The notes below the pieces were generated by a model. The model was not told where the DNA came from, made no database searches, and saw only the letters and a list, made by a program, of their open reading frames with translations. 64,000 nucleotides of DNA, taken from positions 114 through 64,113 of the forward strand of contig JBGUPL010000085.1 in NCBI GenBank assembly GCA_045130275.1, written 5' to 3'. Positions within the stretch are counted from its first letter, which is position 1, and each line of letters begins with the position of its first letter. The DNA is from Bacteroidales bacterium. GTDB lineage: Bacteria; Bacteroidota; Bacteroidia; Bacteroidales; WCHB1-69. Below, one piece after another: positions 3,987 through 63,405 of this stretch. Position numbers and translations under genes: made by a program.

Positions 3987-4014
3987 GAGAGGATTCGTTG
4001 GGGACATGTATTTC

Positions 4015-10238: not shown

Positions 10239-10251
10239 TTTTTAAAACTCT

Positions 10252-14556: not shown

Positions 14557-14749
14557 TCAATGATATTTACTGAATAATATCAAAACGTATGCAAAAAGGC
14601 AAAAATTATACCGAAATGGATATTTATTTATTGTTGAAGTTTAGCGCTTATAACGGAAAATGCGGTGGACCAAGACAAGACCATCGCATTATATTTCTCT
14701 ATGATTATGTAGAAGACAACAGCGCGAAGACATTTCAATTCGCTGGAAT

Positions 14750-22349: not shown

Positions 22350-22364
22350 CTATTAGCTATTGGC
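22342..22364. repeat. heptamer array GCTATTA GCTATTA GCTATTG
   Basis: The stop TAG (22347-22349) of the methyltransferase gene lies across units 1-2. Confidence 0.8.
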
Positions 22365-22420: not shown

Positions 22421-22455
22421 ATTCTTAATTCTTAATTCTACATTCATCATTCATA
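22421..22455. repeat. heptamer array ATTCTTA ATTCTTA ATTCTAC ATTCATC ATTCATA
   Basis: Reverse-complement family of the 10204 array. The stop (22425-22427) of the minus-strand gene is inside unit 1, and both genes end ...IKN*. Confidence 0.85.
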
Positions 22456-26321: not shown

Positions 26322-26338
26322 TCATCGTTTTTTATCAT

Positions 26339-26459
26339 CCATTCATCGTCCATTCATCGTCCATTCATCGTCCATTTATCATCCATTCATCATCCATTCA
26401 TCGTCCATTCATCGTCCATTTATCGTTCATTCATCGTCCATTCATCACCATTTCATCAT
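26339..26459. repeat. 11 tandem copies of the 11-bp unit CCATTCATCGT (minus strand ACGATGAATGG)
   Basis: Units counted by hand, 121 bp, with variants CCATTTATCAT, CCATTCATCAT, TCATTCATCGT and CCATTCATCAC. A degenerate tail runs to the nuclease ATG (26321). Confidence 0.92.
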
Positions 26460-26467
26460 CCACACCT

Positions 26468-26500
26468 CTACCGAGCTTTTGCCCCTACCGGGGCTGTTCA
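26468..26500. repeat. 33-nt element, copy A (CTACCGAGCTTTTGCCCCTACCGGGGCTGTTCA)
   Basis: 26 of 33 identical to 60546..60578. Contains a GCCCC/GGGGC 5-bp stem. Confidence 0.7.
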
Positions 26501-26539
26501 AGGAACATATTTTTATATTATTACCCCGGCCTACGGCCA

Positions 26540-26560
26540 CCCCTTCTACAACAGAAGGGG
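26540..26560 (-). terminator. hairpin CCCCTTCT-acaac-AGAAGGGG downstream of recX
   Basis: 8-bp GC-rich stem 33 nt past the recX stop, followed on the minus strand by an AT-rich stretch. Confidence 0.45.
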
Positions 26561-26580
26561 AATTAGGATCGCCCGCGACC

Positions 26581-26608
26581 AACTACTAACTACTAACTAC
26601 TAACTGCT
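26581..26608. repeat. heptamer array AACTACT x3 + AACTGCT (minus strand AGTAGTT)
   Basis: The recX stop TAG (26593-26595) is inside the array. Stops fall in all three frames on both strands. Confidence 0.9.
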
Positions 26609-32290: not shown

Positions 32291-32311
32291 ATGGTTATGG
32301 GTTATTGGTTA
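32291..32311. repeat. heptamer array ATGGTTA TGGGTTA TTGGTTA (minus strand TAACCAA TAACCCA TAACCAT)
   Basis: Ends 6 nt upstream of the methyltransferase ATG (32284) on the minus strand. Confidence 0.75.
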
Positions 32312-32316
32312 TTGAA

Positions 32317-33102: not shown

Positions 33103-33206
33103 ATTATTATTGTTGTTGTTTTATTCTTTCACATTCACCCCACACTGCGCTTCGCTTATATGGGGTTATTAAAATCTTGCCCTTTCAGGGTTGCTCAATG
33201 AATTAT

Positions 33207-34343: not shown

Positions 34344-34376
34344 AAAAAAAAAAGGCGCAGCCCACCGCCACGCCTT
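34344..34376 (-). terminator. intrinsic terminator of asd
   Basis: The minus-strand RNA AAGGCGUGGC-gguggg-GCUGCGCCUU forms a roughly 10-bp stem (2 G-U pairs) followed by a run of about 10 U (plus-strand A-run 34344-34353). Confidence 0.75.
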
Positions 34377-34423
34377 CATTCTTCATTCTAAATTCTTCTC
34401 TACATTATACATTATGCATTATA
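34374..34423. repeat. heptamer arrays CTTCATT x2 ... CATTATA CATTATG CATTATA
   Basis: Seven consecutive 7-bp units. The asd stop TAA (34405-34407) and the last codons (..IMHNV*) are encoded by the ATAATGY units on the minus strand. Confidence 0.8.
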
Positions 34424-44478: not shown

Positions 44479-47400
44479 TCACCTCGGGATCAATACTTTC
44501 TCCGTTTTCAATAGTTCTGTACCGCGAGTGACGCGTAGCAAATAAACGCCTCCACTCAAATCTCGAACATCCAAATGAACATCCTCGGAAAATTCGCCCT
44601 CCTTCAACAGCCTCCCTGCCATATCGAAAAGAGAATACTTTTTCAAAGTTGGACCTGATAGACCTTCAGTATTGATAACCAATCGTTTACCTGACATCAG
44701 AGCTACATTCACCATTTGCATGTTCGTCGGTTTCCCATTTGTTGCAGAAGGTGCCAGTTTGACCGTTTGGGGAGTTGAATACAGCCCTGCTCTGTTTTCA
44801 GCCACAACACTGAACACGATCATTTGATCTGACTGAACTGAGAAACAATGATTACATGTGCTTAGCAGTCCGTTATTTGTCCAACCCGCCAGTGAAGGAG
44901 ACGAAATCATCGCTGAATTATGGTAATAATACCGCAGGACACCCGATTGCATGTCTGATGACGGCAGCCACGATGCAGAGACCGACACTTCTTGTGACCC
45001 GTCAGGCAACATGACATTCACCGTATTCAATGTCAGCCCTGTAACCTGAGCGGGCGGTGTATAGTCCACCTTCAGGGACTTTTCAACCAAAGCAGATAGC
45101 TTATATGCCTTGTCCATCACAATGGACTTAAGCTTCGTCCTGCTTATGCAATTCACCGCCTGCTGCTGAATGTTACAGGTGTTCAACGAACCAACAGAAA
45201 TCGGGACTGTAGCGTTCCTAGAGCCGTAAACCCGCAAATTGTCGATTCCAACCGAGGCATTGCTTGTGACAAAACCGATATAGGAATTCGATGTTGTCGC
45301 CAAGACATTATCCACCGCACGTATGAGCCGATTCGCATGTCGGAGGACAACAATCTCTCCCGTCGAGCTATCATAGACAACCCGGCACAAATAGGCAGTC
45401 CCAAGTTGGAAATAGACCTGCTCGTTCACCTTGAGCAAACGTTTCGCCCCCAGAATCAGACGATATACGCTCACTGTATGGTTTACCCTGTCAAAACAGA
45501 CCTCATACCCCGAAAAAAGGGAAGTCAACGCCGGCGCATTTCCGCAATTAAAGAAGAACGAACACTTTTCGCCACCGTTAAATCGAAGATAAAAGTCAAA
45601 CAGGTAGGCGGTGTGCGCGGATCCGTTATAACGCGCCGCGACACCAGAATAATTCAGTGCCATATTACTTTGGCACAATTCACCGCCCTGCACCGTCCAC
45701 GTACCGGAACTGTTGTTCACCCAGACTGTTCCGTTCAAAACATTGTCAAAATTGTCACACAGGAACCCCTGATCATGATGAGCACTCCACGTCGAGCCGT
45801 CCGATTCCATTATCTGGTAGAAGCGCCATTTGAGCCCTTTGTCATCCGAATCGGTGAAATAGGCCGTGAAATTCCCCGTGATCCACTGGGCAGCGTCATT
45901 TTGGATGATTGTCTGAGGCATGGCGTTGTCCGTCACCGGTTCGCTTGGATCCGGTTCCCAATCGTTTATGATCTCGTCATCATCCTCTCCAGGATCATCA
46001 TCAGGATCATCATCTCCATCATCCGCCTGGTTTGCATTGCCGGTCACAGCCTGCCAAGTCGCATGCCAACCATCTGCAGTGGTGGCACAGTCTGAGCGAA
46101 ACTCAACCAAGAGATGTTCTCCTGAAGCTGCGACCCGCCCCGGAGACTGCGTGTTCCACCGCCCGATAAGGGGTGAAAAAAGACTTTCGCCATGGTATAT
46201 CCACATAAAGTCATAGTCAGCTTCCAGATTAAAACTTTGGAAGGTCAAGACAATGCTGTCCGCACCGGGCACGTGGATATGGAATAGTTTCCGCTCATCA
46301 TCCCCATAATTGCCATACAAACCGCCGGAATCCATGAAAACACCTGTTTCAGCCATGGAAGTTGTCATTACAGGATTGTCGTTGATGAGTTTATAGTACA
46401 AGTTCCAGTTCCAATACTGCCCAGGATCAGTATGCGTCTGACTCGGATAGTGTTGATGGCCACGGATTTGCGTACATGCCGTGGCTCCTCCCAAACTGTG
46501 GACCCCGTAGTTCAGAACCGTCCCGTTGTCCAGCGTGTCACGGTAGAACACCCTGTGAGGATTGATATTGGGGCGCCGTGAGCAGATGTTCTTCACCAGA
46601 TTGGCTGAAGACTGATACATGTTCATAGTGAAATATGAGTGGATGTCCCCGTAAGCTTCATGCTCGATGCCGATAGTGTAGCTGTTGGCAACCCCGACGT
46701 GCCAGGCCTTGTCTGCTTCACTGACCATCTGGGTGACCTGACCGTCAACAGAACGAATCACATAATGGGCGGACACTTTGGCACTGCAATTCTGAAACCA
46801 CGCGATAGCACCTGCGTATGTACCCTGGGTGTAGTGGATGGTGACCGACGAGATTGTCGTGCCTCCTCGTCCCGTCGTGTAATTGCAGGAGGCTGCAGGC
46901 ACTGGCACTGCATTGGGATAATCCGTAACGAAGAGGCTTGCCCGTTGAGACCGCGTCATGGGCACTTCCGTCCTTTCGCCCGTCAACCTCGAATAACCGT
47001 CGCCGAAAAGCCCTATAAAATCGATCTCGCGGTGAGGGGCCCCACAGCCAGCATACTCTTCCTTGTCAAGAAAGAAATAGATCATGTAGAGAAAACTGTT
47101 CATGGCAAAGTCGTCAACCCCGTCGTCCGGAAGGGGTAGTTCACACAACTCCGTGAAAATACGCTTGTACTTTTCCACTGAATCGCCGTAGAGAGCATAC
47201 TTGTCCTGCAACCGGGCGAAGGCACAGGCATAGGCCTTCACCGACGTGCCGGGCTGCCATAGTATCTCATCCAGAAGATACGGCGTCATCTCGGCCAGCA
47301 GGCGGGCGTTTTCCCTGAAGACCCCTTTTCCGTGCAGCGTCAGCCCCATCACCGAATAAACACAAGGCCTTTCCGAGGGATCCTTTTCAAGTGTGTCCAG

Positions 47401-47655
47401 TCGGATGTTCGGGGTAAAACGCGTGTACTGGAACGCCACTGCCTCCAAAACCCCTCGTGGAACCGTCGCATACTCCTGGTAGGCATCGTCAAACCATTGG
47501 CTGACTTCGTTATACTGCCTGTATAACACGGCATTGATTTGTTGATCATACTCCCACTTGTAGCGGGAAAAATCGTCCACCTGCTGAGCGGCCAAGACAA
47601 CAACCACCATCTGGAATAGCAGCATGGAAAACAGTAATTGTACTTTGTTTTTCAT
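44479..47655 (-). CDS. multidomain secreted peptidoglycan amidase (Amidase_2/PGRP) with CUB-like and lectin/LamG-like regions and T9SS type-A CTD
   Basis: ATG 47655 gives signal peptide MKNKVQLLFSMLLFQMVVVVLAAQQ. Amidase_2 region (ISSVTIHYTQGTYAGAIAWFQN...AHYVIRS...AWHVGVANSYTIGIEHE), acidic linker DDGDDDPDDDPGEDDDE, and C-terminal ...FDMAGRLL...LSGGVYLLRV...KVLIPR. Confidence 0.7.
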   Translation of the reverse strand: MKNKVQLLFSMLLFQMVVVVLAAQQVDDFSRYKWEYDQQINAVLYRQYNEVSQWFDDAYQEYATVPRGVLEAVAFQYTRFTPNIRLDTLEKDPSERPCVYSVMGLTLHGKGVFRENARLLAEMTPYLLDEILWQPGTSVKAYACAFARLQDKYALYGDSVEKYKRIFTELCELPLPDDGVDDFAMNSFLYMIYFFLDKEEYAGCGAPHREIDFIGLFGDGYSRLTGERTEVPMTRSQRASLFVTDYPNAVPVPAASCNYTTGRGGTTISSVTIHYTQGTYAGAIAWFQNCSAKVSAHYVIRSVDGQVTQMVSEADKAWHVGVANSYTIGIEHEAYGDIHSYFTMNMYQSSANLVKNICSRRPNINPHRVFYRDTLDNGTVLNYGVHSLGGATACTQIRGHQHYPSQTHTDPGQYWNWNLYYKLINDNPVMTTSMAETGVFMDSGGLYGNYGDDERKLFHIHVPGADSIVLTFQSFNLEADYDFMWIYHGESLFSPLIGRWNTQSPGRVAASGEHLLVEFRSDCATTADGWHATWQAVTGNANQADDGDDDPDDDPGEDDDEIINDWEPDPSEPVTDNAMPQTIIQNDAAQWITGNFTAYFTDSDDKGLKWRFYQIMESDGSTWSAHHDQGFLCDNFDNVLNGTVWVNNSSGTWTVQGGELCQSNMALNYSGVAARYNGSAHTAYLFDFYLRFNGGEKCSFFFNCGNAPALTSLFSGYEVCFDRVNHTVSVYRLILGAKRLLKVNEQVYFQLGTAYLCRVVYDSSTGEIVVLRHANRLIRAVDNVLATTSNSYIGFVTSNASVGIDNLRVYGSRNATVPISVGSLNTCNIQQQAVNCISRTKLKSIVMDKAYKLSALVEKSLKVDYTPPAQVTGLTLNTVNVMLPDGSQEVSVSASWLPSSDMQSGVLRYYYHNSAMISSPSLAGWTNNGLLSTCNHCFSVQSDQMIVFSVVAENRAGLYSTPQTVKLAPSATNGKPTNMQMVNVALMSGKRLVINTEGLSGPTLKKYSLFDMAGRLLKEGEFSEDVHLDVRDLSGGVYLLRVTRGTELLKTEKVLIPR

Positions 47656-47695
47656 TGTTAAATTGTTTAGGTTAATAATTTTGTTTTTGTCATGG

Positions 47696-47703
47696 CAAAA
47701 ATA
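47696..47703 (-). promoter_or_regulatory. -7 box TATTTTTG (minus strand)
   Basis: The plus strand reads CAAAAATA; 40 nt upstream of ATG 47655. Confidence 0.45.
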
Positions 47704-47958
47704 CAACAACAAAACGCCTTTGTCAATAGGCAAATACATTTTTAACAATAATTAACGGACTAAAATATCAACACGCATTAAAACAATAAATTAACCGAAT
47801 TCAAAATATTGAATTAGGCAATTTTTATGTTAAAATTATTTAATTTAAGAAGAATATGAAAGACGGAAGAAGCGGTGGGCAAAGGTGGGTTTGGAAAAAA
47901 GGAAGAAAATCTCCGACAATTTTTATAGAAATAACACGTTAGCTTATCTCAAAAATAT

Positions 47959-52758: not shown

Positions 52759-55700
52759 CTAACCGTTCAGACGGTAATAGTTTTGATATTTCAGGAAATA
52801 ACGCCAATATCCGGGAGTCTCTAATTGCTCCCGGATTTTTTCATAATGGCTTATGTAATACTGCCGCATTTGCTTGGTGACCAGGCGGTCTTTCTCGCTT
52901 TCAGTGTCGGCAGTAACATTTTCGTAAGGACGGCAACGTTCCGCCACCTCCAAACACATTTCCCCTTCGCGGAGCATCAGTTCATCCTTGGGGAGCACAT
53001 GGCCGGTCCCGTGGAGGAACACCGGCAGAATGTCGGCGCCCAGTTCACGCGCCAACACAAACGCGCCCTTGTGGAAACGCAGAATCTCGCACTGAGGCGA
53101 ACGCGTGCCTTCCGGAAAGATACAGATGGAATAGCCTCTATTGTAGAGATCGCGCAACCGCGGCATATTCTGGTCCATGCCATCGCTTGCAGGATAACAC
53201 TCCGCTTTACGGATCACCAATCCGTAGAAAGGATTCCGCCACACCCAGTCGTTCGTCATAAACACGATTTTGGGAGTGAGCGCCATCATGCAGACCAGAT
53301 CAAAGTGGCTTTGATGGTTGGCGACAATCACCGCGGGCTTGTCGAAAGTCTCCGACGAGAGATTTTCCATTCGGAAACGTATTCCTGGGAGATGTTTCAA
53401 ATAGAAAACGGCCATACGGTGCAACATCGTGTGGTATTTCAACTTTTTGGCCTCTGAATTCTTCCCGAGCAGGAAATAGACGGCAGTGAAAGGGATCAGC
53501 CAGAGGAACAGCAAGAGAAAACAAAAACCGAGAAAAATAGTATTTACCAGGCGTCTAAGGGTGATTGGGGTCTCCCTGGGCTGACCGTTCTTCTTCGTCA
53601 GCCAATCAAAGACGACAGGCGGCAGGAACGATGACATCATCACCACCGTGGCCATACCGATGATGGTGACCAACGCCAGCGAACGCAACGCAGGATGTTT
53701 AGCCACAATCAGACAGCCAATACCGGCAAACATGATCAGCGCAGAGATGACCACGCTGTGTTTATACGATGCCAGTCGCGGCTTGCCCGTCGTATATTCA
53801 TACAGAAGTCCCTCAGTGATAAAAATGGTATAGTCATCACCTTGTCCAAAAATAAAGGTTGCCAAGATAATATTCACAATATTAAATTGAATACCGGTCA
53901 GATGCATCAGTCCCAAAATCCAAATCCAACCTACAGCCAAAGGAAGGAATGCCAACAGGGCAAGCTCTAAGCGGCGGAAAGAGACCAGCAGAAAGACAAA
54001 CACCACCAAACTGCATACCAACCCAATATAATTGAAAGAGTCACGCAACATATCCACAAGTTGCTGTCCAACATCGCTGCCAGAAAAGACGAAAGCCGTT
54101 TCATCACCATCCAGCAGTTCATGAACCGCTTTCTGATCATCTGTTTTCACATAACTGATAATACGATAGCCTTTGTCTCCAACAGGATAGATATATTTGT
54201 TAGTAAAGGGCTCTACAATATCGTTAAATTCTTGTATATCAGGTATTTCACACGGTTCAGCAACCATTGAGAAAAACGGTTGGAAAGCCTCTTCCGAAAA
54301 GCCATGAGCTGAAGCGGCTTGCTGGAATTCGCGCAGGAAAGCCTTGCGACTCTCTTCCTGCCAAAAAGCATTCCACCTTGCGGCAGCCTCCTCGCAGCGT
54401 CTCCTCGAAGGAAGCATCTCCCCCACCCCGCTTACGGAAGCGACGGCATCACAACCGCGGAGTATAGTCATCATCGAATCATGACGGTCAACCGCTTCCT
54501 GCAAAGAGGCGCCCTCTGTCACCGCATACATCATATCGGAAGACTGCAGACTCGACAGGACTTGTGCATTCTCCCGTTGCGATGGAGTCATATAGTTGAT
54601 ATTCGACAAATCGCTGTCGAAGGAAGTCTTGGTGGAAAAATAGCCCAAAATCACTGTGATGACCAACCCGACAAGCAAAATCCAGGGAGAAGCTTTCGTG
54701 CGCGAAAGGTGCAAGCCTGCCCATCGGCCGAAAAGACGGTGTTCGGACGGGGAGGGACGGCGCCGCATCAGCTGAGGCAGGAAAACCAGCACAAACAGGA
54801 TGGTTCCCAACAGCATCAATGACGCAAAAAGGCCGAGATCCTGCATGGCACGGGCATCGAGCCAGAGCAGGCAGAAAAAGGCGGCCACAGTGGTCAGATT
54901 GCCGATAAAGAGCGGCATAACCATCTCGCGCAGCGCCTCGCGACGATTCCCGACCTCCTTGTACTGGTCAAGGAAATGAAGCGGATAATTAGCCACAATA
55001 CCGATGATCACGGATCCAATTCCGAGAACGATAACGGAGACCCCACCACGGATCAGATATAGGCCGGCCAGCGAAAACAGAGCTCCGAAAAGGATGGAAG
55101 CGCCTACCCAAAGAATATCGGAGATGCGACGATAATGAAGCAACAGGATCAACAGAATCAACACGATCGCGATGGACACGGCAAGGATGGAGTCGCGCTT
55201 GATCTGGTTCGCATTGGATGCGGAGATCAACGGCGCCCCTATGGCCGCAACCGCGACACCAGGGCACTCCGACTGCACTTCCGCCATCAATGAATCCAAA
55301 TGCTTAGACAACTGGCCATTATGGAAACTCTCATTCGCTCCATACGGGGAGTCGAACGTCAATATCCCGTGTTTCCCGTCACTTGTAAACAAATATCCGT
55401 CAACTACTTGCAAAGCGTCGTTCAGTTTCAGGGAATGCAGCCGCTCCAATGTCGGGGAGAAGAGTTGCAGCGGATCGCTCGGGAGGGTGCGCATAAACAC
55501 GCCCGAAGTGGGGAACATCAGCATCTGCTTGTCGGACTTCAACCGCTCGTGGATGATATCCGGCGTTTTTATCAGAGAATCAATTCTTTGGTAGTCAGAT
55601 TCTTCAAGGAGGTACGGCAAGTGAGCATATACAGCGTCCATCAAGTCGAAGACTTGGGTTTCATCCACCGTCACGGTCAGATTCTCCACCAAGCCACTCT

Positions 55701-56001
55701 CTTCCAACCTGTTACCTAAAAGATCCATCGCATGCTGCACATCCTCGACACGGAGAGTATCATCCTGACTGGAAAAGAGGACCGCTATCTGGCTTTGGGT
55801 AGCGAACTGCTGGTAAACTTCCTGGTATTTACGGCTCTCGTCGCTGCGGGGCAGGAATTTGGCGATATCCTCCTCGTAGTGCACCCGCGTGGCCAAAAAA
55901 GCGAAGAGAGCGGTCAGGGAAAGAGCAAGAGCCAGCGTCAGCCAGCGCCGTTTCTCCAGAAAGTCGTATATTTTCAGAAAAAAATTCGTCATAATCGGCA
56001 T
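52759..56001 (-). CDS. fusion protein: MMPL/RND-type (12-TM) lipid exporter + C-terminal PlsC/LPLAT acyltransferase
   Basis: Two blocks of about 6 TM each separated by soluble loops over roughly aa 1-790. The C-terminal domain has HX4D (VANHQSHFD) and FPEGTRS acyltransferase motifs. ATG 56001 overlaps the upstream stop by 1 nt (TGATG). Confidence 0.8.
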   Translation of the reverse strand: MPIMTNFFLKIYDFLEKRRWLTLALALSLTALFAFLATRVHYEEDIAKFLPRSDESRKYQEVYQQFATQSQIAVLFSSQDDTLRVEDVQHAMDLLGNRLEESGLVENLTVTVDETQVFDLMDAVYAHLPYLLEESDYQRIDSLIKTPDIIHERLKSDKQMLMFPTSGVFMRTLPSDPLQLFSPTLERLHSLKLNDALQVVDGYLFTSDGKHGILTFDSPYGANESFHNGQLSKHLDSLMAEVQSECPGVAVAAIGAPLISASNANQIKRDSILAVSIAIVLILLILLLHYRRISDILWVGASILFGALFSLAGLYLIRGGVSVIVLGIGSVIIGIVANYPLHFLDQYKEVGNRREALREMVMPLFIGNLTTVAAFFCLLWLDARAMQDLGLFASLMLLGTILFVLVFLPQLMRRRPSPSEHRLFGRWAGLHLSRTKASPWILLVGLVITVILGYFSTKTSFDSDLSNINYMTPSQRENAQVLSSLQSSDMMYAVTEGASLQEAVDRHDSMMTILRGCDAVASVSGVGEMLPSRRRCEEAAARWNAFWQEESRKAFLREFQQAASAHGFSEEAFQPFFSMVAEPCEIPDIQEFNDIVEPFTNKYIYPVGDKGYRIISYVKTDDQKAVHELLDGDETAFVFSGSDVGQQLVDMLRDSFNYIGLVCSLVVFVFLLVSFRRLELALLAFLPLAVGWIWILGLMHLTGIQFNIVNIILATFIFGQGDDYTIFITEGLLYEYTTGKPRLASYKHSVVISALIMFAGIGCLIVAKHPALRSLALVTIIGMATVVMMSSFLPPVVFDWLTKKNGQPRETPITLRRLVNTIFLGFCFLLLFLWLIPFTAVYFLLGKNSEAKKLKYHTMLHRMAVFYLKHLPGIRFRMENLSSETFDKPAVIVANHQSHFDLVCMMALTPKIVFMTNDWVWRNPFYGLVIRKAECYPASDGMDQNMPRLRDLYNRGYSICIFPEGTRSPQCEILRFHKGAFVLARELGADILPVFLHGTGHVLPKDELMLREGEMCLEVAERCRPYENVTADTESEKDRLVTKQMRQYYISHYEKIREQLETPGYWRYFLKYQNYYRLNG

Positions 56002-57209
56002 CACTTCACCAGCTTCACCGCCTCCGAAACGGGGATTTTCTGCTCGCCTTTGAAAGCGATGATGAAGGCATCGGGATACTTCGACTTTATTTCGCTAAGG
56101 ATTGTTTTGGCCGCCTGCAGGGTGGTTTCGCTGCCAGCGGTGTATTTCCAAAGTCCACCTTCGTAAAAGCGGTTCACGTGGGGAATGTTCTTGAACCGTT
56201 TGTCATTGACGGCAATCTTTTCCGGAACTGCCATGAACTGCACCATAAAACGAACACCGTCGGGATCGGCCACCGTTTTTGTCACCGAGGCTTTTTCGTC
56301 AACCAGCTTCTTATCTGATTGATTATCAGCATTATTATCATTGCCGTTATCATGACTGGACGAAGTTACGTCATTTTTACTTTCAACAGAATTATCATTG
56401 TTTACTGAAGGAGTAACGTCCGGAGTGTCTGAATTATTGCCTGTGATCTGCAAATAATAGGAAGAAAAAGCGCGGTATATTGCTCCGGCGATTTCTTTTT
56501 TATGCTGTTCATCATTGAGGTAGTTCTCTTCAGTAGGATTGGAGAGAAAGCCCATCTCTATGAGGATGCTGGGCATGGAGACAGACCAGAGCACCCAGTA
56601 GGGGGCCTGTTTGACACCGCGGTTGAGCAAGTGGGTGGTGGCGACAAGGTTTTTCTGCACTTTGTCGGCCAACAGGATGGAATTGTTGAGGTATGCCGAC
56701 GAGTAGAGGGAAAACATGACGGCGGATTCGGGGGAGTCGGGGTTGAATCCGGCATAATTGTCTTTGTATCCCTCCTCTTTGAGCATGGCTGAGTTTTCGG
56801 CGCGGGCCACGGCAAGGTTTTGGGCCGATTTACTGAGACCCATCACATAGGTCTCGACACCGTGCGCGGAGTGGTTGTCATTGGCATTGCAGTGGAACGA
56901 GATGAAGAGGTCGGCGTGATGGCTGTTGGCGATTTTGGCCCGGTTGTAGAGTTCCACGAAGACATCCGTGCTGCGAGTGTATATCACCTTGACATTCGGG
57001 CAGTTATCGCTGATGAGTTTGCCTGTTTTTAGGGCGACGTCCAGGGCGACGTCCTTCTCCCGGGAATAAGTGCCGAGGCAGCCGGGATCCTTTCCGCCGT
57101 GTCCTGCGTCAATCACCACCTTGAACGTTTTACCGTCTTTCTGGGCACTAACCGGCGGCATCAAAAAAATTATGAACAGATATACTAAGAAAAATATTTT
57201 CGAGTTCAT
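56001..57209 (-). CDS. N-acetylmuramoyl-L-alanine amidase (Amidase_3, AmiC-like) with C-terminal SPOR domain
   Basis: VVIDAGHGGKDPG...FISFHCNA...LIEMGFLSNPTEE Amidase_3 motifs, N/D/S-rich linker, C-terminal SPOR-like FMVQFMAV...GLWKYTAG. Confidence 0.85.
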   Translation of the reverse strand: MNSKIFFLVYLFIIFLMPPVSAQKDGKTFKVVIDAGHGGKDPGCLGTYSREKDVALDVALKTGKLISDNCPNVKVIYTRSTDVFVELYNRAKIANSHHADLFISFHCNANDNHSAHGVETYVMGLSKSAQNLAVARAENSAMLKEEGYKDNYAGFNPDSPESAVMFSLYSSAYLNNSILLADKVQKNLVATTHLLNRGVKQAPYWVLWSVSMPSILIEMGFLSNPTEENYLNDEQHKKEIAGAIYRAFSSYYLQITGNNSDTPDVTPSVNNDNSVESKNDVTSSSHDNGNDNNADNQSDKKLVDEKASVTKTVADPDGVRFMVQFMAVPEKIAVNDKRFKNIPHVNRFYEGGLWKYTAGSETTLQAAKTILSEIKSKYPDAFIIAFKGEQKIPVSEAVKLVK

Positions 57210-57226
57210 ATCATTCGATATTTTGA

Positions 57227-57234
57227 TTATCTTT
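57227..57234 (+). promoter_or_regulatory. -7 box TATCTTTG
   Basis: Exact TAnnTTTG about 100 nt upstream of ATG 57335 (49 nt before the alternative TTG 57284). Confidence 0.4.
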
Positions 57235-57249
57235 GCTGATTTTTTCGCG

Positions 57250-57257
57250 CAAAATTA
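57250..57257 (-). promoter_or_regulatory. -7 box TAATTTTG (minus strand)
   Basis: The plus strand reads CAAAATTA; 40 nt upstream of the amidase ATG 57209. Confidence 0.45.
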
Positions 57258-57334
57258 ATAATATTGACTTAAGGAAATACTGATTGATTAAAAAAATATA
57301 CACATCGGATTTTTCATATTTCTGCAAGCTGATT

Positions 57335-59893
57335 ATGGTGTTCATATTCAGCGGGTTGTGTATATTTGCCTCCGCGCAGGACGTAAGACGGCGCCGTCCG
57401 CCGAGATCCACTTCCGACACGGCAAGGGTCAGCATCCTGAATCCGGGACAAGTTCCAGACAGCATCATCGCAAGCCAACATTCTCCAAAAGTGATCTCCG
57501 TCAACGCCATCTCCTCAGTGGTGGAGTACAGTGCCCGCGACTCGGTGGTGAATGACCTTCAGAACCGGCGCACCTACCTTTTCGGCGATGCATTGGTGCA
57601 TTACGAAGACATGGAGCTGCGTGCCGACTACATCGAGATCGATTTCAAGCGCAACGAGTTGTATGCCTGCGGCGTGGCCGACTCCAACGGCACACTGACC
57701 GGCAACCCCGTCTTCAGCCAGCAAGGAGAGAACTACCGGGCCCGGGAAATCATGTATAATTTCACCACTAAAAAGGGCAAGATCACCCATGTGATCACCA
57801 CGCAGGACGACGGATTCATCCATGGTGAGCAGGTGAAGAAAATGGGCGACAACGTGGCCTATATCAAGCGGGGCAAATACACGACCTGCGAGCTGGAGGA
57901 CCCGCATTTCGAGATTGCCTTCTCCAAAGCAAAGGTCATCCAGCACGACAAGATTCTCATCGGGCCGGCCTACCTGAGTTTCACGGGGGTGCCCACCCCG
58001 CTGGCCCTCCCTTTCGGGTTCTTCCCGCTTGACGCGCAGCATAAGTCCGGTTTGGTGATGCCTTCCATCGGACAGGCGGGCACACTGGGGTTCTATCTCC
58101 GAGATCTGGGCTTTTACTTTGCCATCAACGACAACATCGACCTGCTGCTCTCGGCCGACCTCTACACGCGCGGCAGCTGGGCGCTGAAAGCAAAGTCCAA
58201 CTACGTGTACCGCTACAAATGCAACGGATTGGTGGAATTGGCCTTCGCACGTTCACTCACCGGCGACCGCATTGACACGGCGAATTACAAAAAGAGCAAC
58301 AACTTCAAGATCTATTGGGACCACAAACAGGACAACAAGTCGCACCCGCGCACCCGTTTCAACGCGCACATCGACATGCAGAGTGCCAACTATGCCCGCT
58401 ACAACATGACCTCCGCCAACGACTATCTCTCCAACCAGTTCACCTCTTCGGTCTCCTTCTCCACCTCCGCTGCCGATGTCTTCTTTTTCGACGCCGGCAT
58501 TTCATACTCGCAGAACACCGGGACGCACACCGTCAACCTGAAACTGCCCAACATCAACATGTCCGTGGCACAGTTCTACCCTTTCCGGAAGAAGGACAAA
58601 ATCGGCAAATTGAAATGGTACGACAACATCTCCATGAAATGGACCTCCCAGCTGGTGGGGCAGGTGAACACCATCGACTCCCTGTTTCTCAAGCCAATCA
58701 CGTGGCAGCAGTTCGAGACGGGGATGATGCACACCATCCCGCTCACCATTCCCATCAAGATCGCGAAGACCATCAACTGGAACACCTCCATCACGCTCAC
58801 TGAAAAATGGTACTTGCAGCATTACACCCGCGACATGGTTTGGGACACCACCATTGCCGAGATGCCCGTACTGCACCAGTATTTCAACCGCAAGTTCGGT
58901 GCCGTCCACGACCTGAACGTTTCCTCCAACCTGACCACCAAGGTCTATGTGATGTACGTGTTCAAGAATGGAGGCGCCGTCAGGCACATCATCACCCCGA
59001 CGCTGAATTTCACTTTCCAGCCGATGCTCAACGGGCGCAACACCGCGCAATACGTCAACCCGATGACCGGGGAGTTGGTGAATTACACCTATTACGACAA
59101 TTCTATTTTCGGGAGCGGTAACAACCGGATGACCGCCAGGGCGCAGATCTCTTTCGGCAACAACTTGGAAATCAAGGTTCGTTCGAAGAAAGACACCATA
59201 ACGGGGCTTAAGAAAGTGCCTATCATCGACAACTTCAACATCTCAATGTATTACGACTTCGCTGCCGATTCCATGAAATGGTCACTGCTCACGATGTCGG
59301 GCCGAAGCACCCTCTTCAAGCACCTCTACCTCACCTACAGTTTCCTCTTCGACCCGTACAGCATCAACGAGAACGGGCGCCGGGTGAATGTCACCGAATG
59401 GGCGGCCAACCGACGTCTGCTGCGCTACTCATCAGGCACTTACAGTGTATCTCTCAATTACCGCATTGACCAGAGCACCTTCAAATCGAAAGATCCCGAG
59501 AGGCAGAAAGCGCGCCTGCCGTGGTCGCTTACTTTCAACTACACCTTCACCTACGGTATCAACGACAACCTCGACTATTATCGTCTTATATATCAATATC
59601 CTGACTTGAAGCCCTACACTCACAACATTGTCCACACGCTGGGAGTCGCCGGCGACATAAACATCACCAAAAAATGGCGATTTGGTTTCACCACTGGTTA
59701 TGATTTTGTACAGAAGTCCTTGTCATACACTTCGTTGGATTTCTATCGCGACATGCACTGCTGGGAAATGAGCTTCAACTGGATCCCGGTCGGATACCGC
59801 AAAGGATGGTCGTTCACCATCAATGTGAAGTCCTCAACGCTCCGCGATGTGCTGAAGTACAAGAAAGAGATGGATTTCCGCGACAACCTCTAA
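57335..59893 (+). CDS. LptD/OstA-like LPS-assembly outer-membrane protein
   Basis: Signal MVFIFSGLCIFASAQ. OstA-like N-terminal beta-jellyroll (YLFGDALVHYEDMELRADYIEIDF...) and a large C-terminal barrel. Typical Bacteroidota putative LptD. Confidence 0.65.
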   Translation: MVFIFSGLCIFASAQDVRRRRPPRSTSDTARVSILNPGQVPDSIIASQHSPKVISVNAISSVVEYSARDSVVNDLQNRRTYLFGDALVHYEDMELRADYIEIDFKRNELYACGVADSNGTLTGNPVFSQQGENYRAREIMYNFTTKKGKITHVITTQDDGFIHGEQVKKMGDNVAYIKRGKYTTCELEDPHFEIAFSKAKVIQHDKILIGPAYLSFTGVPTPLALPFGFFPLDAQHKSGLVMPSIGQAGTLGFYLRDLGFYFAINDNIDLLLSADLYTRGSWALKAKSNYVYRYKCNGLVELAFARSLTGDRIDTANYKKSNNFKIYWDHKQDNKSHPRTRFNAHIDMQSANYARYNMTSANDYLSNQFTSSVSFSTSAADVFFFDAGISYSQNTGTHTVNLKLPNINMSVAQFYPFRKKDKIGKLKWYDNISMKWTSQLVGQVNTIDSLFLKPITWQQFETGMMHTIPLTIPIKIAKTINWNTSITLTEKWYLQHYTRDMVWDTTIAEMPVLHQYFNRKFGAVHDLNVSSNLTTKVYVMYVFKNGGAVRHIITPTLNFTFQPMLNGRNTAQYVNPMTGELVNYTYYDNSIFGSGNNRMTARAQISFGNNLEIKVRSKKDTITGLKKVPIIDNFNISMYYDFAADSMKWSLLTMSGRSTLFKHLYLTYSFLFDPYSINENGRRVNVTEWAANRRLLRYSSGTYSVSLNYRIDQSTFKSKDPERQKARLPWSLTFNYTFTYGINDNLDYYRLIYQYPDLKPYTHNIVHTLGVAGDINITKKWRFGFTTGYDFVQKSLSYTSLDFYRDMHCWEMSFNWIPVGYRKGWSFTINVKSSTLRDVLKYKKEMDFRDNL

Positions 59894-59904
59894 TGTCAAG
59901 ACAA

Positions 59905-59927
59905 AAGGGCCATGGAATATGGGCCTT
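59905..59927. terminator. hairpin AAGGGCCAT-ggaat-ATGGGCCTT between convergent genes
   Basis: 8 of 9 positions paired, 5-nt loop. Confidence 0.45.
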
Positions 59928-59937
59928 AACGGGAATT

Positions 59938-60495
59938 TTACTCGAAGATTGCGATTTCCACTTCAAAATTATTATCCGAGACGGCTTCAACCCAACCGGC
60001 AAGGACACTTGTGGTTTCGGGATCGAGGAAGGCGCGCTCAACCGCCTGCAGCATCGTTCCTTGATCTTTTTCGGGAAGCAACAAAAAGCTGCTTTCCCCA
60101 TGATATTTGTTGCGAATGGAGATTTCTCCTGTCACAATATTGGGCAACGTATAGACGAACACAGAGGGTGACGGGTAAAACGACTCTTTGTCGGCAATGG
60201 TACGTTGGAACATACTGTCGGCGTGCAGGGAAGAATAGCGGTTGAAGAGGATAACGGCACGGTCGGCACGGGGCACGAAACGATCCCCTCCCTCTTGGGC
60301 CAACAGGATTTCTGATGCAATGAATCCGGCCTTACACAGGACATCCATCTTGAAAAACTTCGGATAGTCCAACTTAAATTTGCGATACAACTGCGTCAAA
60401 AAAGAATCCCCCTCGGCAGCCTCTGCCAAGCAATTCCCGTTCACCTCCAAGCTTTTCGGTGTCAATTTAACCCTATGTGTCACCTTCGATTCCAT
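59938..60495 (-). CDS. half-size ketosynthase-like protein (KS N-terminal-domain-only; CLF/ApeC-like partner candidate)
   Basis: 185 aa. SPSVFVYTLPNIVTGEISIRNKYHGES resembles the SPxxFxxSxxNxxxGxxSI motif of Ketoacyl-synt_2 proteins (memory only). No Cys-His-His triad. Confidence 0.45.
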   Translation of the reverse strand: MESKVTHRVKLTPKSLEVNGNCLAEAAEGDSFLTQLYRKFKLDYPKFFKMDVLCKAGFIASEILLAQEGGDRFVPRADRAVILFNRYSSLHADSMFQRTIADKESFYPSPSVFVYTLPNIVTGEISIRNKYHGESSFLLLPEKDQGTMLQAVERAFLDPETTSVLAGWVEAVSDNNFEVEIAIFE

Positions 60496-60545
60496 CTATT
60501 TCTTTCCGTTCATTGATCAATCATATATAAACATTCTTTTTTATG

Positions 60546-60578
60546 CTACCGAGCTCTTGTCCCTGTCAGGACTGCTCA
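60546..60578. repeat. 33-nt element, copy B (CTACCGAGCTCTTGTCCCTGTCAGGACTGCTCA)
   Basis: 26 of 33 identical to 26468..26500. The stem position C-G in copy A is T-A here (compensatory). Confidence 0.7.
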
Positions 60579-60600
60579 CGAGAAAAAACATCAACACCCC

Positions 60601-60638
60601 TTTAACCATTAACCTTTAACCATTAACCTTTAACCATT
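60601..60638. repeat. heptamer array TTTAACC ATTAACC x5 (minus strand GGTTAAT/GGTTAAA)
   Basis: The KS gene stop TAA (60630-60632) and its last codons (..VNG*) are inside the array. TAA falls in all three frames on both strands. Confidence 0.9.
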
Positions 60639-61778
60639 CACAAAAGCCGCTGCTGCGTTGCAACCGCCAAAGCCGGACAACAGTTTAACAAACGCAAATT
60701 TCTCAGTATCAATATTTTGAGAGCTCACTTTCACGGGTACGGAAACACCGAGTTCGTCATATCCGCGGGTAGCCGGCACTTTGTGGTCATCCAGGGCACG
60801 CATTGTGATCAATGTTTCCAGAACGCCTGCGGCGCCAAGCGTATGTCCATAATAGCCTTTCATGGCATTCACAGGCACATCGGCAAGCCCAGCCCGACCG
60901 ATGGCGATAGACTCCATCTCGTCGTTGTACAAAGTCGATGTTCCGTGCACATTCAGGCACGCCAAATCATCGGCTTTGAGCCCGCTTGATTGCAAGACAG
61001 TCTGCAATGCACGGAAACTGCCTTCACCGGTCCGCGACGGTCCAGAAATGTGGTTGGCATCGTTCCGGACGGCGCCGGCCAGCATTCTCCAGCCCGTGGC
61101 ATCGTCGGGCGCAACGGAATAGACCACGGTGGCGGCGGCCTCACCCAGGTTCAGGCCGTGCCGGTTCGCGCTGAACGGCCGGCACTGTTCGTCCGACAGG
61201 GCCTTCAGCGATTGGAACCCCGACACGATGAACGGCGAGAGCACATCCCCTCCGATGACCACGGCAGTGTCGTATTGTCCGGACACCAGGCAGCGATAGG
61301 CTTCAATCTGCGCACACAATCCAGAAATACAGGCATTCGAGACGGTCACCGGGACATTAGGATTTCCAAAATAACGGGCGATAAGTCGTGCGGAGGCCTC
61401 CGGGGAAATCCGGTCCAGATCGGGATCCTGCCCAGACAGATATTGGACATTTCCTTTTGTGGAGGAAAACACGAACAACAGTCTATCCGATGTTGTATCT
61501 ATCTCACATTGTTTCAATGCTTTAATAGCAGACAAAAGAGTGATTTTCTCGAATTTCGAAAGCGAGGTAAACGGAAGTTTGGCTTTATCCACCTCCGCCT
61601 GAAAGACCGTTTCCAGCGCTTCATCGTCGATAAGCGAAACAAAGCACGGGAATGGCATATCCCAAAGCGAGTCATAACGGCGCAGCGCGGAGCGGCCATT
61701 CATCACGGCCGTGTAATTCTCCTCCACCGAAAATCCGAGCGGAGACACTATATTTTCAGCTATCTTCTTGATTATCAT
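60630..61778 (-). CDS. beta-ketoacyl-ACP synthase (FabB/FabF-like, cluster-dedicated)
   Basis: Cys-His-His triad contexts SNACISG, NDANHISGP and VHGTSTLYND. ATGA overlap with the upstream dehydratase gene. Confidence 0.85.
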   Translation of the reverse strand: MIIKKIAENIVSPLGFSVEENYTAVMNGRSALRRYDSLWDMPFPCFVSLIDDEALETVFQAEVDKAKLPFTSLSKFEKITLLSAIKALKQCEIDTTSDRLLFVFSSTKGNVQYLSGQDPDLDRISPEASARLIARYFGNPNVPVTVSNACISGLCAQIEAYRCLVSGQYDTAVVIGGDVLSPFIVSGFQSLKALSDEQCRPFSANRHGLNLGEAAATVVYSVAPDDATGWRMLAGAVRNDANHISGPSRTGEGSFRALQTVLQSSGLKADDLACLNVHGTSTLYNDEMESIAIGRAGLADVPVNAMKGYYGHTLGAAGVLETLITMRALDDHKVPATRGYDELGVSVPVKVSSQNIDTEKFAFVKLLSGFGGCNAAAAFVNG

Positions 61779-62215
61779 GACTCAAGCCTTTCTCCCGATA
61801 GGGCAATCTTCATTTCAGTTGTGGCGATGCAGCGATCCCCCACAAACGATTCGGCGACAATGAGTTTCATATCCATCACTTCCTCCAAAATCCTCATTCG
61901 GGTGGTCAACGTCTCACCGACTTTCGGCACGGAATCTATATGCATCTTCTTCACCGAACCTATGTATCCTATTCTCACAGCGTCGTTGCCTGCAAGGTAT
62001 TTGTCTGCGAAACCGAGTTGGGCGGCGCAGGTCTGCGCGACATTTTCAATCAATGCATACGATTTCAGGGCACCGTTTTCCAAAAAAATATTCCCGTCAC
62101 GGACAACGAACTCGGTGGCGGCCGTTTTCAGGTCGGCATCAACGAGGCGGTCAACCATCAATATCGGCGGTCTCTGTGGCAAAAGGGTCTGTATGTCAAT
62201 ATCTTGCAGATTCAT
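61775..62215 (-). CDS. hotdog-fold 3-hydroxyacyl-ACP dehydratase (FabZ/FabA-like)
   Basis: LLPQRPPILMVDRL resembles FabZ LPHRYPFLLVD. ATG 62215 overlaps the acyltransferase stop by 1 nt (TGATG); the track start 62227 is TTG. Confidence 0.7.
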   Translation of the reverse strand: MNLQDIDIQTLLPQRPPILMVDRLVDADLKTAATEFVVRDGNIFLENGALKSYALIENVAQTCAAQLGFADKYLAGNDAVRIGYIGSVKKMHIDSVPKVGETLTTRMRILEEVMDMKLIVAESFVGDRCIATTEMKIALSGERLES

Positions 62216-63096
62216 CAAGATTTCCAAAATTCATAATAATTAAACCATTGTTCAGGATATTTCCGTACAACAGACTCGATATGGGAAGCATACCGCTGTG
62301 CCAAGTCCGCCGCCTTTTCTCTAGTCGTATTTTCCTGGCCTTCAATTTGTTCAATAAAAATATGGTACTTTTTGGCAGACTCTTTCATCACCTGGATGGA
62401 GAGCACGGCAAGATCGCGCTGTGCAGCCAGCACGAAAGGCCCGAGGGGGAAGTCAGCAGGCGCGCCGAAGAAATCGCAGGTGACTGTTTTCTGTCCCGAG
62501 ACCACCCGGTCGGAGGGTATGCTGACGCTCTCACCGTCACTCAAGGCGGTGTTCATCAAGAAAATGTGCGACATGTCATCCTTAACGGGGATCATCCGGA
62601 TATTGGTTTCGTCGAACATTTTCTGTCGGTTACGCATCACCGATTCCGCCTCGCCGGAGAAGACCAAGGCGTTGTAGCGTTTTTTGGTTGCCACCAGCGT
62701 GTAACCGGCGGCCTCGTAATTGCCGACGTGCGCGCTCAGGATCATGAAACCAGGCTCAGCACTGGCAAGCTGCTGGTAAAGATGGTAGTTATCGATTTCA
62801 AATTCGAATTTCCCGCCCGCATACATATAAAACCTGTCGAGGATGATCTGGGAGAAGCGGCGGAAATTGCGATAAACCCAGAAGAAAGATTTAACAGTGG
62901 AATACCCCAGGCGCTGCCTGAAGAAATGATACGTCGGCTTATAGCCTTTTGAGAAGAGGAAATAGAAAGGAACCACGAACACGGCGACGAAACCGTAGAT
63001 AAGGCGCAAAGGAATGATCCTCATCACCGCGACGAGGCCGTCATGCATCCAACTCGTGCCGTCGGTTTTCCCTTGCCAAGCCCGTTCTGCCGCCAT
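62215..63096 (-). CDS. LpxL/HtrB-family lipid A-type (lauroyl/Kdo-dependent-like) acyltransferase
   Basis: About 293 aa with an N-terminal TM. The SAHVGNYE motif context and overall length match the PF03279 family as I recall it. ATG 63096 lies 9 nt after the ACP stop. Confidence 0.65.
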   Translation of the reverse strand: MAAERAWQGKTDGTSWMHDGLVAVMRIIPLRLIYGFVAVFVVPFYFLFSKGYKPTYHFFRQRLGYSTVKSFFWVYRNFRRFSQIILDRFYMYAGGKFEFEIDNYHLYQQLASAEPGFMILSAHVGNYEAAGYTLVATKKRYNALVFSGEAESVMRNRQKMFDETNIRMIPVKDDMSHIFLMNTALSDGESVSIPSDRVVSGQKTVTCDFFGAPADFPLGPFVLAAQRDLAVLSIQVMKESAKKYHIFIEQIEGQENTTREKAADLAQRYASHIESVVRKYPEQWFNYYEFWKS

Positions 63097-63105
63097 GTGC
63101 AAAGA

Positions 63106-63348
63106 TTAGGCCACTTTGGAGGCAATATAATCGTAAAACTGACCGAGTGTCTTCACGGTTTTCATCTCCTCGGGCTTGATCTTGAACCCGAAAAGTTTCT
63201 CCACGATGACCACAATGTCCACAAAATCGAGGCTGTCGATGCCCAGATTTTCTTTCAGGAGAGCATCGGGATTCAATTTTTCCTCCTCAATCTCCAGCTC
63301 ATCGACCAGGAATGCGTTCACTTTATCTTCAATTTCGCTTCTATTCAT
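63106..63348 (-). CDS. acyl carrier protein (dedicated)
   Basis: 80 aa from ATG 63348; phosphopantetheine site LGIDSLDFVDIV. Confidence 0.85.
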   Translation of the reverse strand: MNRSEIEDKVNAFLVDELEIEEEKLNPDALLKENLGIDSLDFVDIVVIVEKLFGFKIKPEEMKTVKTLGQFYDYIASKVA

Positions 63349-63397
63349 TTCAAAAACAATCAATTATGTTTGACAATTTGGTTTCAAAAAACGGCGG

Positions 63398-63405
63398 CAA
63401 AGATA
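63398..63405 (-). promoter_or_regulatory. -7 box TATCTTTG (minus strand), candidate promoter of the ACP operon
   Basis: The plus strand reads CAAAGATA; 49 nt upstream of ATG 63348. Confidence 0.45.

Follow-up and report, generated by a model that had tools for sequence, protein, structure and literature searches.

A flexirubin biosynthetic gene cluster was reportedly described by McBride et al. in 2009. The flexirubin cluster of Chitinophaga and Flavobacterium is described as the aryl polyene (APE) subfamily of the Cytophaga-Flavobacterium-Bacteroides (CFB) group (Schoener et al. 2014, as cited in PMC12940132). The APE core set, as listed in the legend of Figure 1 of Grammbitter et al. 2020, consists of a ketosynthase (KS), an acyl carrier protein (ACP), a chain length factor (CLF), a dehydratase pair, a ketoreductase (KR), and a transporter. 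ApeI and ApeP were published to form a dehydratase heterodimer that has one active site (PMC8041823), and the roles of ApeD, ApeJ, ApeM, and ApeL have also been described (bioRxiv 10.1101/2020.12.19.423268; PMC8253772). Clusters of gut and oral Bacteroidales have already been reported as APE/flexirubin-like, as single loci called by antiSMASH (PMC5850320, PMC12940132), and the arylpolyene biosynthetic gene cluster (BGC) of Bacteroides xylanisolvens is syntenic with the flexirubin BGC (PMC12940132). Here, a group of genes at positions 52759-63405 of a 64-kb stretch of DNA from a Bacteroidales bacterium (contig JBGUPL010000085.1) was compared with these systems. The whole 64-kb stretch is called the window.

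With a probability of about 75%, the genes under study are modules A and C of a three-module flexirubin/APE-type cluster, which combines a type II polyketide synthase with genes for lipid anchoring and export and is conserved across Bacteroidota, and the middle module B has been displaced. The locus is an ordinary, known cluster type in an unusual arrangement, and no new envelope-lipid system. The canonical cluster was characterized by a KS-anchored scan with one genome per species (80 genomes), and single genes were counted by tblastn mapping in 85 KS-anchored loci. Loci and contigs are cited by L numbers below. The 80 loci of the scan were nearly all from Bacteroidales, and Tannerella forsythia, Alloprevotella, a Marinilabiliaceae genome, and Chitinophaga tropicalis were also represented. 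The canonical order comprises about 13 genes, i.e., ACP1, an LpxL-like acyltransferase, a hotdog protein, KS1, and a half-KS (module A), ACP2, KS2, an ApeC-like CLF, EamA (small membrane protein), LolA (LolA-like carrier), an ApeI-like hotdog protein, and GT2 (module B), and an MMPL-PlsC fusion (module C). The half-KS was detected in 77 of the 85 loci, ACP2 in 71, KS2 in 70, and MMPL-PlsC in 41. The position after the half-KS was occupied by ACP2-KS2 in 60 of the 67 related genomes with enough sequence, and MMPL-PlsC was located directly after GT2 in 34 of 43.

Two relatives are especially close to the window. In L002 (KS 77% identical) the modules A, B, and C form one operon-like block, with B between the half-KS and MMPL-PlsC, and the MMPL-PlsC of the window is 73% identical over 1076 aa to the gene within this cluster. 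In L083 (KS 79%) the modules A and B were found with the Pfam labels PF13723, EamA, LolA, ApeI-like, and GT2. The first-pass annotation, made from the letters of the window, had proposed either a minimal or split APE-type cluster or a distinct pathway. Of the first possibility, the split form is supported, and the window genes are orthologous to members of the contiguous cluster of about 13 genes in L002 and L083. The co-localization in related genomes that was suggested as a check was also observed, as module A and MMPL-PlsC are parts of the same cluster in relatives such as L002.

The family was assigned by means of two more distant clusters. In Chitinophaga tropicalis (L081) the core order is found alongside TAL (an aromatic amino-acid lyase), a KR, an extra KS, a thioesterase (TE), an O-methyltransferase (O-MT), and a halogenase, and in T. 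forsythia it is found alongside a KR, an O-MT, and a TE. Because the core order is common to both clusters, the family is that of the flexirubin/APE clusters. TAL, KR, TE, and methyltransferase (MT) genes were found within 28, 39, 46, and 56 of the related loci, respectively. In the window, the absence of KR, TE, TAL, LolA, and a cluster-type GT2 that had been noticed at first reading was upheld by tblastn. There was no window match to the cluster KRs of Tannerella and Chitinophaga at E<=0.01, and no TAL match that could account for an aryl starter supply (4CL/ApeH were not specifically searched for). The second ACP of the canonical cluster, ACP2, was absent as well, and tblastn revealed none of the seven genes of module B in the whole 64 kb.

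The domain content of the window was analyzed with Pfam (hmmscan) and NCBIfam models, and the features are listed in Table 1. All eight open reading frames (ORFs) of the first reading were found at their places, and the junctions in module A were as claimed, with the starts fixed by comparison with L083. ACP1 and the acyltransferase gene are 9 nt apart, the next two junctions are TGATG and ATGA overlaps, and the half-KS follows after 134 nt. A gene encoding a PHP-domain protein is located upstream of ACP1 and is transcribed divergently, and therefore the operon begins at about position 63348 and does not continue past position 64000. It had been considered that the missing APE genes might lie just beyond position 64000; this is unlikely, because the cluster boundary is marked by the syntenic PHP gene in L083, L085, L004, and L164.

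Table 1. Features of the locus and their positions in the 64-kb window.
Feature	Position	Strand	Evidence and remarks
ACP1	63106-63348	-	PF00550 E=3e-11; 80 aa from ATG at 63348; first gene of module A
LpxL/HtrB-superfamily acyltransferase	62215-63096	-	PF03279 E=4e-16; ApeD counterpart
FabZ-fold hotdog protein without catalytic His	61775-62215	-	NCBIfam FabZ E=8e-8, below cut-off; ApeP-like half
KS1	60630-61778	-	PF00109 + PF02801; APE/flexirubin-type beta-ketoacyl-ACP synthase
Heptamer tandem repeat TGGTTAA, about 5 copies	60599-60638	-	TRF score 60-80; overlaps KS stop codon, within the 134-nt KS/half-KS gap
Half-ketosynthase, CLF-like, 185 aa	59938-60495	-	Predicted structure and Foldseek; presumed KS1 partner
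Convergent junction half-KS/LptD_2, 44 nt, putative rearrangement breakpoint	59894-59937		Sequence read; hairpin AAGGGCCAT..ATGGGCCTT
LptD_2, Bacteroidota LPS-assembly outer-membrane protein	57284-59893	+	PF19838 E=3e-130
Amidase_3, AmiA/AmiC-type N-acetylmuramoyl-L-alanine amidase	56001-57209	-	PF01520 E=5e-54; weak SPOR-like tail
MMPL-PlsC fusion, 1077-1081 aa	52759-56004 (likely start ATG 55992)	-	PF03176 + PF01553; module C

The proteins of module A were found to be distinct from those of housekeeping fatty acid synthesis. The ACP with a DSLD site that was read in the window was confirmed by Pfam and by the motif GIDSLD, and 63 of 65 family members have the DSL motif with its serine. ACP1 was detected in 64 and the LpxL-like protein in 71 of the 85 loci, and wherever both were detected, ACP1 was located directly upstream. 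The assignment of an LpxL-type acyltransferase was likewise confirmed by the Pfam domain and an HX4E motif (H123/E128), which all of the 72 family members share. The enzyme corresponds to ApeD, the lysophospholipid acyltransferase in APE clusters. For the B. vulgatus homologue BVU_1014, a place in an APE cluster and a non-LPS substrate, rather than lipid A synthesis, have been published (PMC5850320). The window protein does not belong to the LpxL/LpxM equivalogs (best model 57 bits vs a cut-off of 248), and a lipid A biosynthesis context was not found either. The Cys-His-His triad of KS1 is indeed intact, and C150/H278/H312 are invariant in the homologue alignment. The best NCBIfam model for KS1 was PRK09185 with 186 bits, and the best sequence match in the PDB was ApeO (6qsp_A). 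At least 8000 KS1 homologues were scored, many of them at 70-85% identity, and the best 120 had identities of 69-98%. The equivalog cut-offs of the housekeeping type II fatty acid synthase models were missed by KS1 (FabF, TIGR03150: 151 vs 494 bits), ACP1 (AcpP, TIGR00517: 57 vs 70 bits), and the hotdog protein (32 vs 113 bits). By these scores, KS1 and ACP1 are distinct from housekeeping FabF and AcpP; a grouping with the latter was a case that the first-pass annotation had allowed for. ACP1 is predicted to be a dedicated acyl carrier protein, and KS1 an active ketosynthase of the APE/flexirubin type.

The FabZ active site is formed by a His of one subunit and a Glu of the other. An alignment was made with E. 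coli FabZ as reference. In the family of the window hotdog protein, the column of FabZ His54 was a gap in 67 of 67 sequences and the HFPGxP stretch was gone, while Glu68 was kept in 67 of 67. The ApeI-like hotdog family of the same clusters contained the His in 38 of 38 sequences and the Glu in 7 of 38. Because a FabZ site combines the His and the Glu of two subunits, the ApeP-like and the ApeI-like family are complementary halves, and this pattern agrees with the published ApeI/ApeP heterodimer. Both hotdog proteins co-occur in 40 related loci. The window contains only the subunit without His, and no ApeI-like gene was found in the 64 kb. Thus, from the first designation as a FabZ-like hotdog dehydratase the fold was supported by the NCBIfam model, and the family profile matched FabZ structures (E=5e-12) as well as 6qsr_B, but the catalytic pair is not complete. 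A hotdog protein without the catalytic His probably needs an ApeI-like partner, and therefore the middle module is probably encoded elsewhere in the genome. The two look-ups in Pfam gave different results for the window protein and its homologues in L001, L083-L085, L164, and L172, as a PF22817 (ApeP-like) label, not flagged as weak, was present in a precomputed annotation only. Since the label was not reproduced, the ApeP-like assignment rests on the pattern of catalytic residues and on synteny.

The 185-aa protein encoded downstream of KS1 had no Pfam match and no phmmer match in the PDB. A profile of its family matched the CLF 6kxd_B with E=0.9, and hhalign found a PF13723-type family at E=0.005 with a probability of 6.7%, and nothing among the KS families. 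An AlphaFold2 model, for which 33 homologues were used, had a pLDDT of 83.6 and a pTM of 0.83. The top Foldseek matches of the model were the ishigamide CLF 6kxd_B (E=1e-5), many FabF chains, ApeC (6qsp_B), and the actinorhodin CLF. In addition, the Chitinophaga homologue passed the PF00109 N-terminal domain with 22.4 bits vs a cut-off of 20.8. The view of the protein as KS-like and of half length therefore holds. In an alignment to 6kxd_B no residue matched the active-site Cys of ketosynthases, and the gene directly followed KS1 in 74 of 80 genomes. Based on the structural model, the protein would be a truncated, Cys-less, CLF-like partner, presumably of KS1. The PF13723/ApeC-like CLF proper (206 aa; best PDB match ApeC 6qsp_B) belongs to module B and is absent from the window.

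The MMPL-PlsC protein was analyzed next to its two neighbors. Both domains are present in one protein, with HQSHFD at residue 893 and FPEGTRS at residue 960 (HX4D and PEGTR motifs), and the hydropathy profile was compatible with an MMPL core of the 1+5/1+5 type, followed by one or more additional transmembrane (TM) segments in front of the PlsC domain. Thus, the fusion of about 1080 aa that had been recognized at first reading was verified. The protein matched the HAE3 (TIGR00921), HpnN, and AGPAT models. Its gene is the last one of the canonical cluster, and it corresponds to ApeM with an added acyltransferase domain. The LptD/OstA-like gene between the two halves of the locus was also verified, as was the Amidase_3 domain of the next gene, but the SPOR domain attributed to it remained below the threshold (E=0.035, 14.9 bits vs a cut-off of 21). 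A divergent Amidase_3/LptD_2 pair was found in nearly every LptD-anchored locus with upstream sequence (72 metagenome loci), with LptD identities from 88% down to 31%. Downstream of lptD, variable and unrelated genes (MatE, LytTR, TPR, amylase, HAD) were found in the relatives. LptD_2 and Amidase_3 were found within 10 kb of the KS in none of the 80 KS-anchored genomes. They are a housekeeping pair and bystanders outside of the pathway. For an Lpt-linked export, a conserved co-localization of the cluster with lptD was not found, and module A is joined to lptD solely in the window's species.

The MMPL-PlsC gene alone is located near lptD in a sub-clade. It is found directly behind the amidase gene in L087, L092, L098, L099, L125, and L126, which have no KS genes within 10 kb. 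L092, L098, L099, and L125 share also the left flank of the window (Trx, Trx, DUF6029), and in L087 and L126 no more than the part with MMPL-PlsC, amidase, and LptD_2 is seen. In L091 and L107 the gene is 3.7 kb downstream of lptD. In the window it follows the amidase gene with a 4-nt overlap or an 8-nt gap, depending on the start codon chosen.

The split layout, i.e., module A, the LptD-amidase pair, and module C, was not found in any other of the 80 genomes. The half-KS/LptD_2 junction, which carries a 9-bp hairpin with one mismatch, recurs in seven contigs from at least six independent samples (L082, L086, L159, L160, L161, L162, L163), and the full order half-KS, LptD_2, Amidase_3, MMPL-PlsC, and DUF6029 is present wherever these contigs reach far enough. 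Because independent assemblies share the layout, a misassembly was rejected as its cause. Several independent metagenome assemblies of this species are interrupted in or close to the KS/half-KS gap; L086 and L163 begin 133 nt before the half-KS, L159 and L160 end inside the KS, and L001 ends at the KS stop codon. These breaks at the heptamer-bearing gap may represent strain variation or a repeat-induced assembly break.

An inversion would explain the layout. In the ancestral state, modules A and B would have been at the PHP locus and module C already behind the amidase gene; both states were observed in relatives, and A and B without an MMPL-PlsC behind GT2 were found in L083, L164, and L172. 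A single inversion, with its two ends behind the half-KS and behind lptD, would then generate exactly the order of the window. According to this model, module B would be found at the far end of the inverted part, at a distance of more than 60 kb. The junction between A and B is also broken in 7 of the 67 other species (L045, L003, L035, L039, L048, L050, L064). In L045 (13383-19981) modules B and C are inverted and located a few kb downstream, and in T. forsythia an unrelated gene for a 1887-aa protein follows ACP2 on the opposite strand. The position after the half-KS thus appears to be a recurrent rearrangement point. P0269 and P0305, which were considered as module B of the window's species, were rejected, because they belong to other species with contiguous A and B.

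The selection on the retained genes was analyzed by comparison of the window with strains of the same species. The dN/dS ratio was 0.08-0.10 for the KS (17-22 synonymous and 4-7 non-synonymous differences) and 0.07-0.08 for MMPL-PlsC (49-52 synonymous and 12-14 non-synonymous differences). For the neighboring genes it was 0.10-0.12 (Amidase_3), 0.08-0.11 (DUF6029), and 0.03-0.05 (LptD_2), and for the half-KS the differences were too few for an estimate. Both KS and MMPL-PlsC thus evolve under purifying selection. Module B is likely to be present elsewhere in the genome, and this is likelier than its loss because the hotdog protein lacks the catalytic His and the retained genes are under purifying selection.

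Several observations weigh against the assignment to a split flexirubin/APE cluster. The nearest clade of the window has no TAL, KR, or TE within 10 kb (and, with the exception of L006, no O-MT), and an aryl polyene is no more than a putative product; for clusters of this type from Bacteroidales, no characterized product was found in the literature. The PDB sequence scores of KS1 differ only slightly in favor of ApeO over FabF (118.5 vs 114.9 bits), the profile of the hotdog family ranks FabZ above 6qsr_B, and the PF22817 label did not appear in our own Pfam-A hmmscan, even at E<=5. In addition, module B of the window's species was not found among the best 120 KS2 clusters. The last point would fit to a true loss of module B, after which module A and MMPL-PlsC, together with FabG and FabZ borrowed from fatty acid synthesis, would build an unusual acyl chain on ACP1, which would be passed to a lysolipid by the LpxL-like and PlsC domains and then exported. 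No module B gene was found in the window or among the KS2 matches tied to this organism, the split lineage has kept KS and MMPL-PlsC under purifying selection, and the broken junctions in seven other genomes, including T. forsythia, indicate that A may work separately. In addition, the Xenorhabdus model has ApeD on its own adding one polyketide-type acyl chain to lyso-phosphatidylglycerol (bioRxiv 10.1101/2020.12.19.423268). However, the missing His of the hotdog protein is found in the complementary ApeI-like protein, the selection is equally expected with B elsewhere, the search covered 64 kb of the genome, and modules work from separate loci in relatives, as C is detached in L083, L164, and L172. 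A stand-alone pathway of this kind is therefore unlikely. There is a correspondingly small chance that an undescribed minimal pathway produces a non-aryl, polyketide-type envelope lipid with an MMPL-PlsC that is co-transcribed with a cell-division amidase; if so, the 13-gene clusters of the clade without TAL, KR, and TE would make a lipid that is chemically distinct from flexirubin and APE lipids.

A coupling to envelope biogenesis, in which MMPL-PlsC, the amidase, LptD, and module A would modify or export a lipid related to lipopolysaccharide (LPS) or lipid A, is very improbable. The MMPL-PlsC gene is closely linked to the amidase gene, this arrangement is present in at least six relatives, in two others the gene is near lptD, and the acyltransferase belongs to the superfamily of the late acyltransferases of lipid A. 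But the pair is absent from the surroundings of the KS in all 80 genomes, MMPL-PlsC is behind the cluster GT2 in most of those with both, the LptD-amidase pair is conserved far beyond the cluster-bearing taxa with varying genes downstream of lptD, the LpxL models remained far below their cut-off, and the Bacteroides homologue was published to act on a non-LPS substrate. The distinct pathway to a lipid A-like acceptor next to the LPS insertase that had been proposed as the second possibility is thus not supported, also because module A does not contain a complete FabZ-type dehydratase. It could also be imagined that the rearrangement inactivated the pathway and that the genes still present are in the course of being lost, as seven of the about 13 genes are missing locally and the hotdog protein is without one of the two catalytic residues of FabZ. 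Such a decay has hardly any probability, because all six retained ORFs have their full length and intact catalytic motifs, the dN/dS ratios of KS and MMPL-PlsC (0.07-0.10) are in the same range as those of the neighboring amidase and DUF6029, and six or more samples have the layout in common. The split flexirubin/APE-type cluster with a displaced module B is the preferred reading.

For this cluster, a mechanism can be proposed, all steps of which are drawn by analogy to the characterized APE systems of Xenorhabdus and E. coli. KS1 with the half-KS and KS2 with the CLF would extend acyl chains on ACP1 and ACP2. Because the clade is without a cluster KR, the ketoreduction would be supplied in trans. 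Dehydration would be performed by a heterodimer of the ApeI/ApeP type with a single site, to which the ApeI-like protein would contribute the His and the window hotdog protein the Glu. The LpxL-like enzyme (ApeD counterpart), GT2 (ApeJ counterpart), and the PlsC domain may attach the chains to a (lyso)phospholipid, glycerolipid, or glycolipid anchor, with esterification by the LpxL-like enzyme and the PlsC domain, and the MMPL protein (ApeM counterpart) together with the LolA-like protein would move the lipid towards the outer membrane.

The remaining genes of the window are housekeeping genes. A scan, with a tool that does not model Bacteroidota promoters, found 8 promoter-like sites vs 10.5 expected and 17 terminator-like sites vs 13.1 expected. 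A 1089-aa protein with Amidase_2, CUB, and a weak C-terminal sorting domain of the type IX secretion system is encoded at 44479-47748 (minus strand) and may be a secreted cell-wall hydrolase. Many genes have, at or shortly behind their stop codon, a short tandem array of a 7-nt unit that contains a stop codon itself (e.g., TGGTTAA x5, CAGTTAG x7, AGGTTAA x5). In the window such arrays are located at 3959-3987, 10202-10239, 22342-22361, 22421-22457, 26581-26605, 32292-32314, 34374-34423, and 60599-60638, and about 8 of its 13 period-7 arrays are at 3' ends of genes. Because of the period of 7 nt, three copies lead to a stop in all three frames. Elsewhere, such arrays were found after LptD_2 in L126, L087, L091, and L107, and after the half-KS in L083 and L172. 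The arrays are a genome-wide feature without specificity for the cluster. Those of L083, L172, L091, L107, and L126 were considered as substrates of the inversion, and this idea was dropped, because in the inferred ancestor the arrays would be direct and not inverted repeats, so that they do not offer a simple explanation.

Two further repeats were observed. A hairpin-like intergenic element, CACCCCACACTGCGCTTCGCTTATATGGGGTTA, is present once in the window (33136-33168) and recurs in L002 (about 14560-14640), L006 (14224-14241), L164 (12263-12280), L094, L096, and L097, several times between EamA and LolA; it is possibly a small dispersed repeat of the clade. An 11-nt tandem array, ATTCATCGTCC, with about 14 copies (score 192-220) is located at 26310-26462, within a 330-aa ORF (25611-26603) that has no Pfam match. 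As 11 is no multiple of three, this ORF may be no real gene.

Taken together, the locus belongs with the APE/flexirubin BGC family, which antiSMASH has already flagged throughout Bacteroidales, and its adjacency to lptD is without functional meaning. The cluster consists of three separable modules that were split repeatedly in evolution, and cluster-calling tools will under-call or mis-type the fragments. The short Cys-less partners of both ketosynthases of Bacteroidota and the complementary residues of the hotdog proteins lead to clear biochemical predictions. The clade of the window is a rumen clade without TAL, KR, and TE (and mostly also without O-MT) near the cluster. The clusters are very abundant, with thousands of homologues.

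With RND exporters of the HpnN/MmpL type, the window protein shares the 12-TM MMPL core with two large periplasmic loops and the matches to the TIGR00921 (HAE3) and HpnN models, but it is far below the family cut-offs, has a C-terminal PlsC domain, and is found in the context of a polyketide synthase-lipid cluster. The KS/CLF pair Iga11-Iga12 of ishigamide biosynthesis (PDB 6kxd) is from a polyene-forming type II system, and 6kxd_B was the best structural match of the 185-aa model (query-normalized TM score of 0.58). In contrast to the window protein of 185 aa, which is 15% identical and for which the partnership is presumed, Iga12 is a full-length CLF of about 360 aa.

With the apeA-R clusters of E. 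coli CFT073, Xenorhabdus doucetiae, and A. baumannii, the Bacteroidota cluster shares the dedicated ACPs and a KS with a truncated, Cys-less CLF (ApeO:ApeC, 6qsp). At the family level, also the single-site dehydratase ApeI/ApeP, the LpxL-family protein ApeD, the GT2 ApeJ, the LolA-like ApeL, and the MMPL protein ApeM have equivalents. The gene order is different, the sequence similarity is low (KS 118 bits to ApeO), both ketosynthases have a short partner in Bacteroidota, and PlsC is fused to MMPL. Furthermore, ApeQ (KR), ApeK (TE), ApeB (MT), ApeG, and ApeN are not present in the window or in its nearest clade, with the exception of an MT in L006. The core order is shared with the flexirubin cluster of Chitinophaga tropicalis L081, with identities of 46% for the KS, 47% for the ACP, and 30% for MMPL-PlsC. 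In contrast to it, the window contains A and C only, without TAL, KR, TE, O-MT, halogenase, and the extra KS; dialkylresorcinol genes were not seen, and the window version is interrupted by the housekeeping LptD/amidase pair. The arylpolyene BGCs that antiSMASH calls in gut and oral Bacteroidales (the BVU_1014 cluster, pBGC-12 of B. xylanisolvens, and T. forsythia) belong to the same family of clusters and are from the same taxonomic order, and module A of the window is also found in L039 and L048 of T. forsythia. They were published as single loci, whereas in the window the LptD-amidase pair stands between module A and module C.

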